Below, piece by piece: positions 1,822 through 51,477 of a stretch of 64,000 nucleotides of DNA. Under the pieces are notes generated by a model. The model saw only the letters and a program-made list of their open reading frames with translations, was not told the DNA's origin and searched no databases. How positions within the stretch are numbered: position 1 is the first letter of the stretch; every line of letters begins with the position of its first letter. The position numbers were made by a program, and so were the translations under genes. This stretch comes from Candidatus Saccharimonadota bacterium (GTDB taxonomy: Bacteria > Patescibacteriota > Saccharimonadia > Saccharimonadales > CAIOMD01), in the NCBI GenBank assembly GCA_031973215.1, contig DALYDK010000001.1, forward strand, positions 38,122 through 102,121. The letters are read 5' to 3'.

Positions 1822-3012
1822 TTATGACTTTTCTAATACAACTAGTTCTCTACCTACAAATTGGTTGTCTCTAATGTAGATTAAATCAGCTTGAGAGGCG
1901 AGCTTAAAATCTATACGATTGTACCCGATTTTTGCCAGAAGGTCAAGGGTAGGGAGGCTGGCAAACCCATTTTTAACACGCCAAGCAGGTACGGCTAAGC
2001 AAAGTCTTGTGCCTGGTTTAATTTGGCCGCCAAGGTTTTGAAGCATTTTTTTATGCAAAACATTAGTTTCTTCAAGTAATTTTTGTAGCTTTTCTTGGTT
2101 TGGCATCATAGAAATAGGACTGCCAAGGTATGTCTCACAAGCTACCAAAGAAATCTCTTTTTCCCAAGTATGAGTTGTAGCATCGCCAAGTTCTATTCTG
2201 GTATATTGGTTGGTTCTTCGGGGGTGCTTCTGTTTAAGCCATGCAATATTTTCAATTGAATAATCGACCATTTTAGAACTAATGTCAGATCCGTAAACGC
2301 TATATCCCATAAGTAGCGCTTCTTGTAGCACAACTCCTGTTCCGCAAAAAGGGTCAAGAAGTGTTAGTGAATCTTTGTCTTGATCTCGCTGTTTCCCAGA
2401 AGCTAAATTAATTATTGTTTGAGCCAGTTTTGGAGGTAGCATGCCAACAAATGCATCTCTTTTTGGCCTGGCTTGGTCTCTGGCAGTGTAGCCAGATATA
2501 TCTTGTTCGTAGGTAGTTGTACCTATTAAAACCTTCGGCCCAAAACCGTAAACGACAACTTCAATACCTGATCTGCCATCGAGTTTATTGTTGATTATTT
2601 GGGCTGTAGATAAGCGGCCATTCGAAGACTGAACAAGTCTTGGGGCTAGGTTTTTCTTTTGAAGTTTGCGCTTTATTTTTATGCCTAGTGCAGTGACATC
2701 ACCAGGTTTTACAGATATTCCGTAGACACTTATTCCAAAATTAATTTTTCTGCTTTTTTTGGTAGCCAATTCTTCTGACATTGCTTCATAAATTGTATTT
2801 TCTAAAGACTGCCAATTAGAGTACGAAATAATTGCGCTAACTTTGCCAACTTTTATAACACTACCCAAATTTCTGGCTTCTAAGTAATTTATCTCCCTAT
2901 TAATAACCCCTAGGGAGCTGTCTAATTTATTAACCGAATTGGCTCCGAACAGACTTTCAAGTTCGGCAAATCCTATAGCTGGTTGGCGTCCTAATATTGC
3001 AAATGATTTCAT
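1822..3012 (-). CDS. Putative SAM-dependent RNA methyltransferase (Trm11/UPF0020-like)
   Basis: 396 aa. It carries the SAM-binding motif LDPFCGTGVVLQEA followed by YGSDIS, with an N-terminal domain of THUMP-like size. Confidence 0.6.
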   Translation of the reverse strand: MKSFAILGRQPAIGFAELESLFGANSVNKLDSSLGVINREINYLEARNLGSVIKVGKVSAIISYSNWQSLENTIYEAMSEELATKKSRKINFGISVYGISVKPGDVTALGIKIKRKLQKKNLAPRLVQSSNGRLSTAQIINNKLDGRSGIEVVVYGFGPKVLIGTTTYEQDISGYTARDQARPKRDAFVGMLPPKLAQTIINLASGKQRDQDKDSLTLLDPFCGTGVVLQEALLMGYSVYGSDISSKMVDYSIENIAWLKQKHPRRTNQYTRIELGDATTHTWEKEISLVACETYLGSPISMMPNQEKLQKLLEETNVLHKKMLQNLGGQIKPGTRLCLAVPAWRVKNGFASLPTLDLLAKIGYNRIDFKLASQADLIYIRDNQFVGRELVVLEKS

Positions 3013-50156: not shown

Positions 50157-50816
50157 ATGGATAATTCAAAATACTCAAACGAGCCTAAGGTAGATTATTG
50201 GGATTTTATTAATGATAACGATTTGAAGCTACTGCTAGAAGATATTCTTGATTCAAAAAACAGTAAAATAATATTAATTGATGGCAGGTCTGGAAGCGGA
50301 AAATCATATCTTGGTAATAAAATAGGAAATTTGCTTAAAGCACCTGTAGTGCATACTGATGATATTGCATGGAATAATCATCCAATTAATTGGGATACAG
50401 AAATAAAGGAAAATATTATTAAGCCATGGCTAAATAATGAAAATATTGAATATAGACCAAAGGGCTGGAATGAAACTCGCAAGGGTGCAATTACTCTATC
50501 AAGAAGAAGTAAATTGTTAATTATAGAGGGCGTTGGTGCCGGCCGAATTAGTTTGAATACCAATAACTCAATACTTATTTGGGTTCAGGCTGATGCAGAA
50601 AAGGCTTTTCAGCGTGGAATATTGAGAGACATGAAGACAGAGCAGCGAACCAAAAGTGAGGCTGTAGCATTCTGGAACAACTGGAAAATGTACGAAGACC
50701 CTTTTTTGGAAGAAGAAAAACCCTGGGAAAGGGCTGATATTGTAATAAATGGTGACGGCTATGGAGCTAACAAAAGTACTTCTAAAATAACTCGTGGTCC
50801 TCTGTTTAGAAATTAA
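50157..50816 (+). CDS. P-loop kinase-like protein (uridine kinase-like fold)
   Basis: 219 aa with Walker A IDGRSGSGKSYLG followed by VHTDD. Confidence 0.5.
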   Translation: MDNSKYSNEPKVDYWDFINDNDLKLLLEDILDSKNSKIILIDGRSGSGKSYLGNKIGNLLKAPVVHTDDIAWNNHPINWDTEIKENIIKPWLNNENIEYRPKGWNETRKGAITLSRRSKLLIIEGVGAGRISLNTNNSILIWVQADAEKAFQRGILRDMKTEQRTKSEAVAFWNNWKMYEDPFLEEEKPWERADIVINGDGYGANKSTSKITRGPLFRN

Positions 50817-50859
50817 TTGAAGCAAATTGGTTATTTAGTGTAAAATATTGTCTAGCTAT

Positions 50860-51036
50860 GGTCTCATTGTCGGAGCGGTCTTGGACACCAGGTTCTCATC
50901 CTGGCAATCGGCTGAAAACTGCTAGGCAGCAGTTCGCAAGGCCGGAAGCCTGGATGGCCAATGCCACCAAGCTGAGGCGGGCCCGACCAAATTTACGAAG
51001 TAAATTATGGGTGGGTCGATTCCGAATCGAGCCTTT
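50860..51036 (+). ncRNA. tRNA-Glu-derived chimeric unit 1
   Basis: From 50860 to 50911 the acceptor 5' strand and the anticodon arm through CAATCGG are base-for-base identical to the tRNA-Glu gene. The D-loop differs and position 9 is T rather than C. The same 22-nt upstream box is present (50834-50855). After 50911 come hairpins ACTGCT-aggc-AGCAGT and AATTTAC-gaa-GTAAATT, a T-loop-like GGGTCGATTCC, and a terminal palindrome plus TTTAT. Confidence 0.4.
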
Positions 51037-51054
51037 ATAATATAGTTAGCAAAT

Positions 51055-51140
51055 GGTCTCATCGTCTAAAGTGAGACAAGCCGGTCGGCTTGTTGCAAGG
51101 AAATCTACTCTTCAAAACTTGTTTTGAAAGATGTAGTTTT
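51055..51140 (+). ncRNA. tRNA-Glu-derived unit 2
   Basis: GGTCTCATCGTCTAA is identical to tRNA positions 1-15. It is joined to GTGAGAC (an acceptor 3'-strand-like sequence), then AAGCCGGTCGGCTT and an imperfect hairpin ending in TTTT. A TATAAT box lies at 51036-51041. A decayed anticodon-arm-like piece, GGAGCACCAGGCTGTTCTAAA, lies at 51160-51180. Confidence 0.35.
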
Positions 51141-51229
51141 GGGGCCGCGCTAGCGTGGCGGAGCACCAGGCTGTTCTAAATGATGATGACTTGGTTAAGT
51201 AGTTTAGTGTAAAATATTGTCTAGTATTT

Positions 51230-51304
51230 GGTCTCATCGTCTAACGGTTAGGACACCAGGTTCTCATCCTGGCAATCGGGGTTCGATTCCCCGTGAGATC
51301 ACCA
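51230..51304 (+). tRNA. tRNA-Glu (anticodon CUC), CCA encoded
   Basis: A manual cloverleaf fits. Acceptor: GGTCTCA/TGAGATC. D arm: GTCT-aacggtta-GGAC. Anticodon arm: CCAGG-TTCTCAT-CCTGG. T arm: CGGGG-TTCGATT-CCCCG. It ends A-CCA. The D-arm sequence TCGTCTAACGGTTAGGACACC is typical of tRNA-Glu. Confidence 0.9.
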
Positions 51305-51307
51305 AAA

Positions 51308-51340
51308 TAAAAACTCCAGCTTGTCTGGAGTTTTTATTTT
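51308..51340 (+). terminator. Rho-independent terminator after tRNA-Glu
   Basis: AAAAACTCCAG-cttgt-CTGGAGTTTTTATTTT. Confidence 0.8.
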
Positions 51341-51477
51341 GGATTTTTCTTGCAGAGAAACCGTCAATCCAGCAATAAATCACTCCAGCAAAGCCTGAAT
51401 CCCTTTTTGACTTACCTTCTAACAAGAATTACCTTGGTATAATCAAGTTAAGAGTTAACTAAAAAAGGAGCAATTAA

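Follow-up and report, generated by a model that had tools for sequence, protein, structure and literature searches.

A tRNA-Glu(CUC) gene in a Candidatus Saccharibacteria (TM7) chromosome is preceded by two partial 5' copies of the same tRNA, and each of these carries a copy of a previously undescribed three-hairpin module of ~95-105 nt. The two inserts belong to one family, their hairpins covary, their arrangement is polymorphic among strains, and the unit nearest the gene is conserved across species. There is roughly an even chance that the locus is a recombination hot spot at tRNA-Glu(CUC), where units 1 and 2 are displaced 5' fragments, each with a small structured insertion module that works at the RNA level. 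Contigs of the same species (about 20) and three related species were compared with the window, i.e. the whole 64-kb stretch of DNA that was analysed. The organism belongs to Candidatus Saccharibacteria even though its MAG is labelled a Gammaproteobacterium.

tRNA genes are classic landing sites for mobile DNA, and the usual trace is a displaced 3' fragment beside an integrase-bearing island. The locus described here presents a different trace in a reduced CPR genome, namely nested 5' fragments with predicted promoters, together with replacement promoters that would arrive with the insert. In addition, a compact putative RNA module is found that is always embedded in tRNA-Glu sequence, has its fold kept by compensatory change and appears to be shuffled between sites and species.

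An intact tRNA-Glu(CUC) gene behind two partial copies

Across the 64-kb window, ARAGORN called 1 tRNA, the tRNA-Glu(CUC) gene at 51230-51304, which the Rfam tRNA model scores at 60.8 bits. This gene, like the other parts of the tRNA locus, is on the forward strand. It is followed at 51302-51342 by an intrinsic terminator consisting of an 18-bp stem and then a U-run (terminator scan, repeat search). The original prediction had placed the gene and its terminator here, behind two rearranged units derived from tRNA-Glu, and had suggested a check of the region against tRNA and RNA families; this check (ARAGORN, Rfam) returned the intact gene alone. Units 1 and 2 were not called as tRNA by ARAGORN, and the Rfam tRNA model found no match in 50860-51229 even at E <= 10. 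Neither unit has the full cloverleaf with both acceptor strands and a T-arm. Both units nevertheless form more stable predicted folds than shuffled sequence, with z = -3.0 for unit 1 and z = -2.6 for unit 2.

Unit 1 stands behind a predicted promoter, P1 (50817-50855), with a -35 element TTGAAG at 50817-50822 and a -10 element TAAAAT at 50841-50846. The predicted promoter of the intact tRNA, P1' (51186-51224), has ATGACT at 51186-51191 and TAAAAT at 51210-51215, and the promoter scan found the same pattern of a -35 element, 18 nt and TAAAAT ahead of both unit 1 and the intact tRNA (unit 3). Both promoters contain the 22-nt box TTTAGTGTAAAATATTGTCTAG (50834-50855 and 51203-51224), and its 100% identity in the repeat search bears out the shared upstream box of the original prediction. 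The same 22-mer is located upstream of tRNA-Glu in the sister species (loci L193 and L194), and in L194 the same promoter as P1' is also predicted.

Unit 1 itself (50860-50911) is a tRNA-Glu 5' fragment of nt 1-51 that starts with the acceptor 5' strand and a variant D-arm, retains the anticodon arm in full as well as the variable loop, and breaks off 3 nt into the T-stem. A block of 29 nt, GGACACCAGGTTCTCATCCTGGCAATCGG, is 100% identical between the fragment (50883-50911) and the gene (51251-51279) in the repeat search; the anticodon arm through CAATCGG is thus identical to that of the gene, and the D-loop differs, both as first noted. The D-arm of unit 1 is unlike the tRNA of every relative and is unexplained by any step of the best model. 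The tRNA sequence ends after nt 51 and restarts at the T-loop (GG-TCGATTCC) past an insert of ~100 nt. The GC-rich insert had been read correctly, but the T-arm had been described as replaced and is rather interrupted. The resumed T-loop-like sequence GGGTCGATTCC (51013-51023) and its inverted copy GAATCGAGCC form the terminal palindrome that had been proposed for this unit (51013-51033 in the repeat search, with arms at 51013-51022 and 51024-51033).

Unit 2 follows a promoter-like TATAAT box (P2, 51036-51041), read from the sequence. It consists of tRNA-Glu nt 1-15 (51055-51069), identical to 51230-51244, and forms the left copy of a 15-nt direct repeat, GGTCTCATCGTCTAA. With the adjoining upstream nucleotides, TAGCAAATGGTCTCATCGTCTAA at 51047-51069 matches 51222-51244 at 87% in the repeat search. 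As originally described, these nucleotides are joined to GTGAGAC, which pairs with the acceptor 5' strand in the predicted fold, and two further hairpins and a U-run follow. A decayed tRNA fragment had also been noticed behind unit 2; it is the tRNA continuation, nt 22-31, at 51161-51177, directly behind the module, and reads GAGCACCAGG here as against GGACACCAGG in the gene. At the same site, the sister species has GGACACCAGG (L193) or AGACACTAGG (L194).

Chance is excluded as the source of exact repeats this long (22 and 29 nt) in a span of 750 nt. Since the same arrangement is present in independent assemblies (L001, L167) and the unit-2 architecture is found in another species (L193, L194), the locus is not an assembly artefact.

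The three-hairpin module

Manual and MAFFT alignments place the GC-rich inserts of units 1 and 2 in one family. This kinship was not recognised in the original prediction. The module has the order GUGAGA, hairpin 1, U(U/C)GCAAG, a long hairpin 2, GGG and hairpin 3. Six copies were found, all within tRNA-Glu sequence, either in the D-loop after tRNA nt 15 or in the T-stem after nt 51, regions that form the tRNA elbow. In 6/6 copies, ~10 nt of tRNA sequence resume on the far side of the module (15 to 22, 51 to 54). In both types, hairpin 3 uses the first nucleotides of the downstream tRNA segment. Copy E1 (50911-51013) is of the T-stem type and comprises hairpin 1 (50917-50934), GCAAG (50936-50940), a hairpin 2 rich in GC, and a hairpin 3 to which an AT hairpin is added. 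Copy E2 (51070-51161), located by alignment, RNAalifold and covariation counts, is of the D-loop type and scores 92.1 bits with the covariance model R1. It comprises AGUGAGA, hairpin 1 (51075-51094), GCAAG (51095-51099), hairpin 2 (51100-51140, ending in UUUU) and hairpin 3 (51141-51161). Its GUGAGA(C) pairs with the acceptor 5' strand at 51055-51061, and so the truncated transcript would be closed into a helix.

R1 was trained without E1 and recovers it at 23.1 bits, with E = 0.0027 when the window and L215 are searched and E = 0.02 in 0.5 Mb. The model also recovers a decayed module copy in a third species (L215), and it is available for charting the module family. RNAalifold gives 33 pairs, 15 of which show compensatory changes. 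Paired cells amount to 93.9%, as against 79.3% in shuffles and 30-47% in slid controls, and the number of compensated pairs was reached by 0/500 shuffles; these statistics are thin because they come from five module sequences, about four of them independent. In 6/6 copies, the fold of the sense (tRNA) strand is 4-12 kcal/mol more stable than that of the antisense strand, and G-U pairs are numerous. Compensatory changes beyond both kinds of control and strand asymmetry are thus found together, as in a conserved structured RNA, for five sequences of which about four are independent. E1 is a weak copy, with its hairpin 1 broken by a SNP in most strains, and four of the five SNPs that separate the window from strain L001 over ~1.08 kb sit within E1. 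Copy E2b of L193 is a mosaic whose hairpin 1 is nearest to E1 of the window (80%), hairpin 2 to insA (77%) and hairpin 3 to E2 of the window (90%).

No known family accounts for the module. Rfam, at the gathering threshold and at E <= 10, found tRNA alone in the window region, L193 and L084, with units 1 and 2 and the module unmatched, and ARAGORN found no tmRNA. No other copy is present in the 64-kb window, none lies outside tRNA-Glu sequence in 0.9 Mb of related loci, and the 10-kb recombinase-proximal parts of conjugative elements (ICEs) are free of it. No recombinase, transposase or donor element carrying the module was found. A multi-copy repeat is rejected by the lack of a further copy in the window, and a MITE or IS-derived element by the lack of terminal inverted repeats (repeat search) and of dispersed copies (window; 0.9 Mb). 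The inserts might have been fragments of a known mobile element, but a blastn "distant" search of 50834-51229 against phages and plasmids gave no match. Viral contigs were scanned for exact occurrences of the anticodon-arm 26-mer, the 3'-end 22-mer, the P1 box and the D-type junction, with zero matches for each, and no relatives of the recombinase were found in viral contigs with a single-sequence or an alignment query. A hammerhead or other self-cleaving motif was dismissed on a core mismatch seen by eye and the absence of an Rfam match. A tmRNA-like "GCA" resume codon was dismissed since, on inspection, the tags it would encode do not resemble those of tmRNA.

BOX, ERIC and Correia elements are dispersed, with tens to hundreds of copies per genome. 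The module resembles them as a non-coding sequence of ~100 nt with modular hairpins kept by compensation, mosaic copies and strain-variable presence. Unlike these elements, it is seen only within tRNA-Glu sequence at one locus.

Strain polymorphism and conservation in related species

Four arrangements occur among strains with an identical flanking 219-aa kinase-like protein. Types A and B have unit 1, the intact tRNA and then an insert, followed by a displaced 3' fragment of the tRNA. Type C carries a serine-recombinase ICE immediately behind the tRNA, and the exact alleles of three window proteins are not on the type C contig. Type D is the arrangement of the window. A segment of 175 nt (51070-51244), composed of E2, the tRNA remnant, P1' and tRNA nt 1-15 and bounded by the 15-nt direct repeats, is exactly missing from types A-C, as seen against L084 and L161-L170. 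In these types, the sole promoter-like box ahead of the intact tRNA is the TATAAT of P2. Unit 2 is dispensable, since it is missing from most conspecific strains. The comparison of related genomes that had been advised thus revealed both the empty and the occupied state for the 175-nt segment; unit 1 is fixed, as it was present in all conspecific contigs examined and its empty state was not seen. Downstream, a 208-aa gene with a HELGH motif and no Pfam family is intact in other strains and deleted in the window strain, where a remnant of the last ~11 codons and the stop is left at 51424-51458 (alignment with L084, L082 and L083). No integrase is found within about 10 kb on either side of the locus.

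In relatives with 73-74% histidine-kinase identity, the tRNA start (the first ~30 nt, at a contig end) lies directly behind the native upstream region, which can be aligned with the sequence upstream of unit 2 in L194. Unit 2 therefore appears to be an insertion. Compared with L194, identity is 100% for the tRNA, 93% for the P1 box, 73% for the spacer and 68% for the module; the histidine-kinase gene reaches 71% nucleotide identity, and the adjacent intergenic DNA, at about 50%, is unalignable. Unit 2 and the second promoter are thus conserved in the sister species despite unalignable neighbouring intergenic DNA. L193 has the module within a tRNA-Glu that is otherwise complete and adjoins a recombinase gene. 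The 163-nt precursor is predicted to fold as a perfect cloverleaf with three hairpins within the D-loop (MFE equal to the centroid, z = -4.3), and this interrupted copy scores 22.7 bits with the tRNA model, below threshold.

Serine-recombinase ICEs are located directly 3' of tRNA-Glu in a conspecific strain (L183), the sister species (L193), human-oral Saccharibacteria (L201-L208) and L214. The L193 and L214 ICE sequences become alike right after ...CCA while the acceptor stems differ, so the element ends at the tRNA 3' end.

Possible origin of the fragments and role of the module

Under the favoured explanation, insertion into the tRNA-Glu gene would have taken the rarer 5'-fragment configuration. 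The displaced 5' fragments would have kept their own predicted promoters, and the working gene, with a replacement promoter, would end up furthest downstream. Each fragment would hold one module copy at a fixed D-loop or T-stem position. Gain and loss of the module would be precise, between short direct repeats of tRNA sequence, the copies would become mosaic between sites and species, and the hairpins would be maintained through compensatory changes on the tRNA-sense strand. The module would be either a small non-coding element that inserts on its own or the conserved terminus of a mini-element, which would supply a promoter and a tRNA 5' part. The original argument against simple pseudogene decay holds. 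Among the three origins that had been offered, small insertions into older tRNA copies are best supported, with one module family at two fixed tRNA positions and tRNA sequence resuming beyond it. Recombination scars at a tRNA attachment site are supported in general: the four arrangements, the ICE 3' of the tRNA and the displaced 3' tRNA fragments in two arrangements speak for them, but not for a serine-recombinase ICE as the source of the 5' fragments.

Islander-type tDNA islands are alike in having an intact regenerated tRNA gene beside a same-orientation partial copy, direct repeats of tRNA sequence flanking the fragment, and the upstream position as the correct configuration for a 5' fragment, which 159 of 3919 mapped islands leave (PMC4383910). 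Such islands also form arrays at one tDNA and vary in presence between strains. The present locus likewise has a same-orientation partial copy on the correct side, 15-nt and 29-nt repeats, and occupied and empty states. In contrast to most of those islands, the displaced piece here is the 5' part; in addition, the fragments are interrupted by a structured module of a sort not known from them, and no integrase with cargo is present between fragment and regenerated gene, where only about 30-175 nt of non-coding DNA are found. As the "islands" span only about 30-65 nt, a Campbell-type history requires large later deletions. In a protein-coding target, SXT/R391 reportedly integrates into the 5' end of prfC and supplies a new promoter and 5' end. 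The inserted DNA brings a promoter and a replacement 5' part in both cases and the target gene stays functional, whereas SXT/R391 is an ICE of ~100 kb with a tyrosine integrase and the segment at the tRNA measures 175 nt and has no genes.

Sense-strand covariation and cross-species conservation argue, at the level of sequence, that the module acts as RNA, and it may have been selected as such. Its most likely role would be to stop and cap transcripts that are initiated at the displaced promoter of the tRNA. E2 and its L194 orthologue have UUUU(U) behind hairpin 2, just ahead of the promoter of the working gene; hairpin 2 has no consensus terminator call because its stem is AT-rich. UUUU or UUUUU follows hairpin 2 in E2 of the window, L194 and E2a of L193, and UUCU in place of a U-run follows it in E2b of L193 and insA, so termination would not be a general property of the module. 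Should the module be an RNA-level insulator, it illustrates how a very small genome can withstand repeated insertions at a tRNA gene.

Several other histories are conceivable. Tandem duplicated tRNA-Glu genes may have decayed by internal deletions, with the module as an ancestral 3' trailer or spacer, GTGAGA as the real acceptor 3' strand and no mobile element. GTGAGA does equal tRNA nt 66-71, the identical 22-mer of P1 and P1' fits duplication, and tandem arrays at tDNAs are known (PMC4383910). This history is nonetheless rather unlikely: the tRNA resumes where it stopped in 6/6 copies, including the otherwise complete L193 tRNA, one module occupies two different tRNA positions, and no such trailer is found at tRNA-Glu genes with a recovered 3' flank (window, types A-C, L194, L201-L208, L214). 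The cross-species mosaic hairpins also suggest exchange. The third of the original options, that units 1 and 2 are functional genes, expressed as tRNA-derived small RNAs (regulators or decoys) and retained in their own right, not by-products of insertion, would agree with their own predicted promoters, the conserved structure with sense-strand covariation, the retention of unit 2 in the sister species amid unalignable intergenic DNA, and the presence of unit 1 in all strains with a base-perfect anticodon arm. Only a fairly small chance is given to it, as unit 2 is exactly missing from most conspecific strains, a SNP breaks a stem of E1 in most strains, no target or partner is evident and the family is seen at one locus only. 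It is highly unlikely that the fragments and inserts are attL/attR scars of the large-serine-recombinase conjugative element with its attachment site in tRNA-Glu. ICEs do lie directly 3' of tRNA-Glu in L183, L193, L201-L208 and L214, and the L193 recombinase gene adjoins the module-interrupted tRNA. But the ICE boundary is the tRNA 3' end, so the 5' fragments are not its product and this junction misses the fragment and module ends, while the recovered ICE parts contain neither a partial tRNA copy nor the module. Exchange by serine recombinases takes place at a 2-bp core and leaves no long direct repeats. A serine-recombinase crossover in the D-loop is rejected by the same L214-L193 comparison.

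The L193 copy also raises the question of a new bacterial tRNA intron, or processed intervening sequence, at the elbow loops, with units 1 and 2 as decayed intron-containing copies. Archaea have tRNA introns at non-canonical D-arm and T-arm positions as well as split tRNAs, and these need the archaeal bulge-helix-bulge motif and splicing endonuclease. The likeness lies in short D-loop or T-arm inserts around which the mature tRNA domain can fold; the host here is bacterial, and no bulge-helix-bulge motif is evident. Patescibacteria, the same phylum, are unusually rich in tRNA introns, structured non-coding inserts that hide tRNA genes from annotation tools (PMC13011429). However, the known ones are self-splicing group I introns in the anticodon loop that are detectable by models (PMC13011429), and nearly all bacterial cases of group I/II tRNA introns share that position. 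The module sits in the D-loop or T-stem instead; its ~95 nt fall well short of a group I/II core, and it matches no Rfam intron or ribozyme. The module does interrupt an otherwise complete tRNA-Glu whose precursor is predicted to fold as a perfect cloverleaf, and hairpin 3 draws on the start of the downstream tRNA segment in both types. Joined flanks, though, would give a T-loop of 6 nt or a D-loop without nt 16-21, 3' exons are missing from units 1 and 2, and the L193 copy may be dead, its sub-threshold score going with a tRNA-Glu(CUC) that is likely dispensable. Processing as an intron is therefore very unlikely. A slim chance is given to an extension of the insertion reading, in which the module would be a new class of small protein-less insertion element specific to the elbow-forming loops (D-loop, T-stem) of Saccharibacteria tRNA-Glu, one that may behave as a removable intervening sequence in a complete gene such as that of L193. 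If the module is itself mobile or removable, it would represent a new kind of tRNA-targeted element.

The locus is also of practical concern for annotation and assembly. A 60-aa ORF at 50858-51040 appears as a gene in the public annotation; it has no Pfam match and no ribosome-binding site and is treated as spurious, and its strain SNPs are two synonymous and two non-synonymous. Assemblies break at this locus, several of them within the tRNA.

The tRNA-Glu(CUC) locus and its strain arrangements

The intact tRNA-Glu(CUC) at 51230-51304 is the sole tRNA detected by ARAGORN in the 64-kb window (Rfam score, 60.8 bits) and is directly followed by an 18-bp terminator (51302-51342). Two displaced 5' tRNA fragments, each with a promoter, precede it: unit 1 (50860-50911) and unit 2 (51055-51069). 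The layout of 50834-51340 described in the original prediction matches the sequence. Repeat searches returned two identical copies of a 22-nt box (50834-50855 and 51203-51224) and of a 29-nt anticodon-arm block (50883-50911 and 51251-51279), a tRNA start common to 51047-51069 and 51222-51244, a T-loop-like GGGTCGATTCC at 51013-51023 and a palindrome at 51013-51033. A promoter scan places promoter-like sites ahead of unit 1 and the intact gene, and a TATAAT at 51036-51041 lies ahead of unit 2. In scans with ARAGORN and Rfam, neither unit 1 nor unit 2 qualifies as a tRNA or matches an Rfam family, even at E <= 10. Each of them folds better than shuffled sequence.

The D-arm of unit 1 (50860-50882) reads GTCG GAGCGGTCTT GGAC, whereas the working gene and every relative have GTCT AACGGTTA GGAC. 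The difference forms one block, the following 29 nt being identical to the working gene, and it resembles another tRNA-Glu allele or a footprint more than random decay. In public annotation, a 60-aa ORF (50858-51040) covers unit 1 in all strains. It starts 2 nt ahead of the tRNA fragment, has neither a ribosome-binding site nor a family match, and is probably a false gene call.

The strain comparison covered about 20 contigs encoding exactly the same 219-aa P-loop kinase-like protein as the gene just upstream of unit 1 (50157-50816). Unit 1 is present in all of them, and four arrangements occur downstream of the 219-aa gene. Type A has unit 1, the TATAAT box, an intact tRNA-Glu at the place of the window's unit 2, a different terminator, an insert of about 130 nt (insA), a tRNA 3' fragment GGTCGATTCCCCGTGAGATCACCA, a 208-aa HELGH gene and the lyase. 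Type B differs from it only in having the window's terminator, an unrelated insert of about 100 nt and the fragment ATTCCCCGTGAGATCACCA. In type C (L183), unit 1 and an intact tRNA are immediately followed by a mobile element with genes for a 578-aa large serine recombinase (opposite strand), Replic_Relax, FtsK/SpoIIIE, and HATPase and Z1 domain proteins. Type D comprises the window and contigs L001 and L167. An additional 175 nt (51070-51244), missing from type B, are flanked by a 15-nt direct repeat, GGTCTCATCGTCTAA, and type D lacks the 208-aa gene save for the last 11 or so codons at 51424-51458. The comparison of related genomes suggested in the original prediction shows that strains either carry unit 2 or lack it exactly. 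Over 1.08 kb the window and L001 differ at five places; four of these are inside the unit-1 insert, and one of the four breaks a stem.

The 208-aa gene (L084, 2355-2981) carries a HELGH zinc-protease-like motif, matches no Pfam family, and lies between the tRNA and the lyase in other strains and the sister species. Its deletion in the window strain (51343-51477) has end points in similar AAGAAT..TATAAT sequences. The type B insert (L162 / L170, 3975-4160) is hairpin-rich and lies between the tRNA terminator and the displaced 3' fragment. Several independent assemblies have contigs that stop within or next to tRNA-Glu (L081, L172, L174, L175, L197-L200), as expected from the repeats and strain heterogeneity at the locus.

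The locus in related species

Two loci of the sister species, L193 and L194, show 80% histidine-kinase identity to the window and lack unit 1, and an ABC-F gene replaces the kinase-like gene. Both hold the full architecture of unit 2, i.e. tRNA nt 1-15, AGTGAGA, three hairpins, a decayed GGACACCAGG, the same -35 region, an identical 22-nt box and an intact tRNA-Glu(CUC). L193 has a second unit fused into a gene, in which tRNA nt 1-15 are followed by an insert of about 100 nt and then by nt 22-75, so that a tRNA-Glu(CUC) (2556-2718, minus strand) is interrupted in its D-loop. A 574-aa serine recombinase follows this interrupted tRNA, and no intact tRNA-Glu(CUC) copy was seen at that locus in the 10.4-kb contig. 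In L197-L200 (73-74% identity), the first 30 or so nt of the tRNA stand directly behind their upstream region, only this much being visible because the contigs end there. The upstream region of L199 aligns with that upstream of unit 2 in L194, which indicates that unit 2 with its promoter is an insertion into the D-loop of a native tRNA gene. A relative at 85% identity (L215) has no tRNA at the locus; its kinase gene is adjoined by a type A insert that has decayed and carries a tRNA-3'-like tail.

Identity between the window and L194 is 100% in the tRNA, 93% in the P1 box and leader (P1 being the unit 1 promoter), 73% in the remnant and spacer, 68% in the insert and 71% in the nucleotides of the histidine-kinase gene; the 40 nt upstream of unit 2 and the 60 nt downstream of the tRNA are unalignable at about 50%. 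This pattern indicates that the insert and promoter region are either constrained or exchanged between lineages.

A structured module within tRNA-Glu sequence

Six inserts were lined up (E1 and E2 from units 1 and 2 of the window, one from L194, two from L193, and insA), and all share one plan: (A/G)GUGAGA, an 8-bp hairpin 1 with a tetraloop, U(U/C)GCAAG, a long hairpin 2, UU(C/U)U, GGG and a GC-rich hairpin 3. RNAalifold predicts 33 pairs from five copies, 15 of which keep pairing through changes on both sides. With the covariation statistics resting on only about five independent sequences, standard pairs make up 93.9% of pair cells (79.3% in shuffles), the compensated-pair count is reached by 0 of 500 shuffles, and sliding partners by 1-3 columns lowers pairing to 30-47%. 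A covariance model (R1) built from five copies, E1 left out, recovered E1 in a search of the window and L215 (23.1 bits, E = 0.0027). It returned nothing further in about 0.9 Mb of Saccharibacteria and other loci, including the recombinase-proximal 10 kb of nine copies of the serine-recombinase conjugative element, and it does not match the type B insert. No donor element or enzyme was found among the loci examined. G-U pairs are frequent, and in all six copies the predicted fold of the sense strand is 4-12 kcal/mol more stable than that of the antisense strand, which places the constraint on the strand co-transcribed with the tRNA.

Every copy of the module lies within tRNA-Glu sequence, at one of two fixed sites, and the tRNA numbering carries on across it. 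In the D-loop type (window E2, L194, both L193 copies), nt 1-15 precede the module and nt 22-31 or onward follow it. In the T-stem type (window E1, insA, L215), the module stands between ...CAAUCGG (to nt 51) and GG-UCGAUUCC... Folding pairs the leading GUGAGA, identical in sequence to the acceptor 3' strand, with the fragment's GGUCUCA. The interrupted L193 gene is predicted to form a perfect cloverleaf with three hairpins in its D-loop (MFE equal to centroid, z = -4.3), but its tRNA-model score, 22.7 bits, is below threshold. Conservation of the family extends across species, and individual copies are mosaic: the second L193 copy is nearest to window E1 in hairpin 1 (80%), to insA in hairpin 2 (77%) and to window E2 in hairpin 3 (90%), while it is only 55-64% alike to its positional relatives.

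Origin of the units and neighbouring elements

The recombinase of L183 has more than 1400 homologues. In human-oral Saccharibacteria (L201-L208), the same 578-aa protein occurs in a conjugative element with T4SS genes that is always directly 3' of tRNA-Glu(CUC), its recombinase reading frame running antisense into the tRNA. The L193-type recombinase is widespread, is 46% identical to the L183 type and lies 3' of an intact tRNA-Glu(UUC) in L214. Compared at the recombinase-proximal end, the L193 and L214 elements are alike immediately past ...CCA whereas the acceptor stems differ, so the boundary of the element is the tRNA 3' end; the element hence marks a hot spot and did not make the 5' fragments. 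A model with a serine-recombinase crossover in the D-loop was dropped on account of this boundary. These two related large-serine-recombinase families are part of integrative or conjugative elements that have Replic_Relax, FtsK or T4SS genes, occur in environmental and human-oral Saccharibacteria and stand directly 3' of tRNA-Glu (CUC or UUC), with the recombinase ORF antisense into the tRNA (L183, 6755-16516; L193, 872-2596; L201-L208; L214, 8811-11747). According to the 2014 Islander survey, the integrases then known to target tRNA genes were all of the tyrosine type (PMC4383910).

The original prediction was right to argue against simple decay. Two of its explanations contribute: recombination scars at a tRNA attachment site, with the serine-recombinase element marking the hot spot, and small insertions into older tRNA copies, seen as structured modules embedded in tRNA-Glu sequence. 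The module itself may be a small insertion element; alternatively, it may form the conserved end of a mini-element bringing along a promoter and the 5' part of the tRNA. That the units are instead decayed tandem copies with a common trailer is unlikely. Independent small-RNA genes are likewise an improbable reading of them. An intron-like insert is very improbable, since no intron or ribozyme model matches the module and the tRNA introns known from Patescibacteria are group I ribozymes located in the anticodon loop (PMC13011429), whereas the module lies in the D-loop or T-stem.

The module probably works as RNA; most simply, its putative role would be to end and cap the transcript from the displaced promoter just ahead of the working gene's promoter. 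The locus is a variant of the tRNA-gene insertion scar. Islands in tRNA genes also leave 5' fragments, but in a minority of cases (159 of 3919; PMC4383910). What is new is the RNA module, which is conserved, has no earlier description and is tied to tRNA-Glu sequence in a single Saccharibacteria clade. It is quite unlikely to represent an entirely new type of mobile or intron-like element that targets tRNAs.

The genes around the locus are housekeeping genes (TopA, DprA, Pth, Der, a two-component pair, an argininosuccinate-lyase-like gene and a HAD hydrolase), with no integrase nearby in the window's gene annotation. The 219-aa kinase-like gene has weak AAA_18 and PRK matches and no close relative in other Saccharibacteria or other species, and relatives carry the ABC-F gene in its place. 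Its nearest homologues (30-42% identity) are mostly from Actinomycetota, with some from Chloroflexota and Deinococcota, and the host phylum is a possible source of the gene. The species-representative MAG that matches, L001 (CAYLXL010000091.1), carries the title 'uncultured Gammaproteobacteria bacterium'. The histidine kinase of the window has homologues named Candidatus Saccharibacteria, Saccharimonadales or Patescibacteria, which assigns the window to a TM7/CPR bacterium, and the public label looks wrong.
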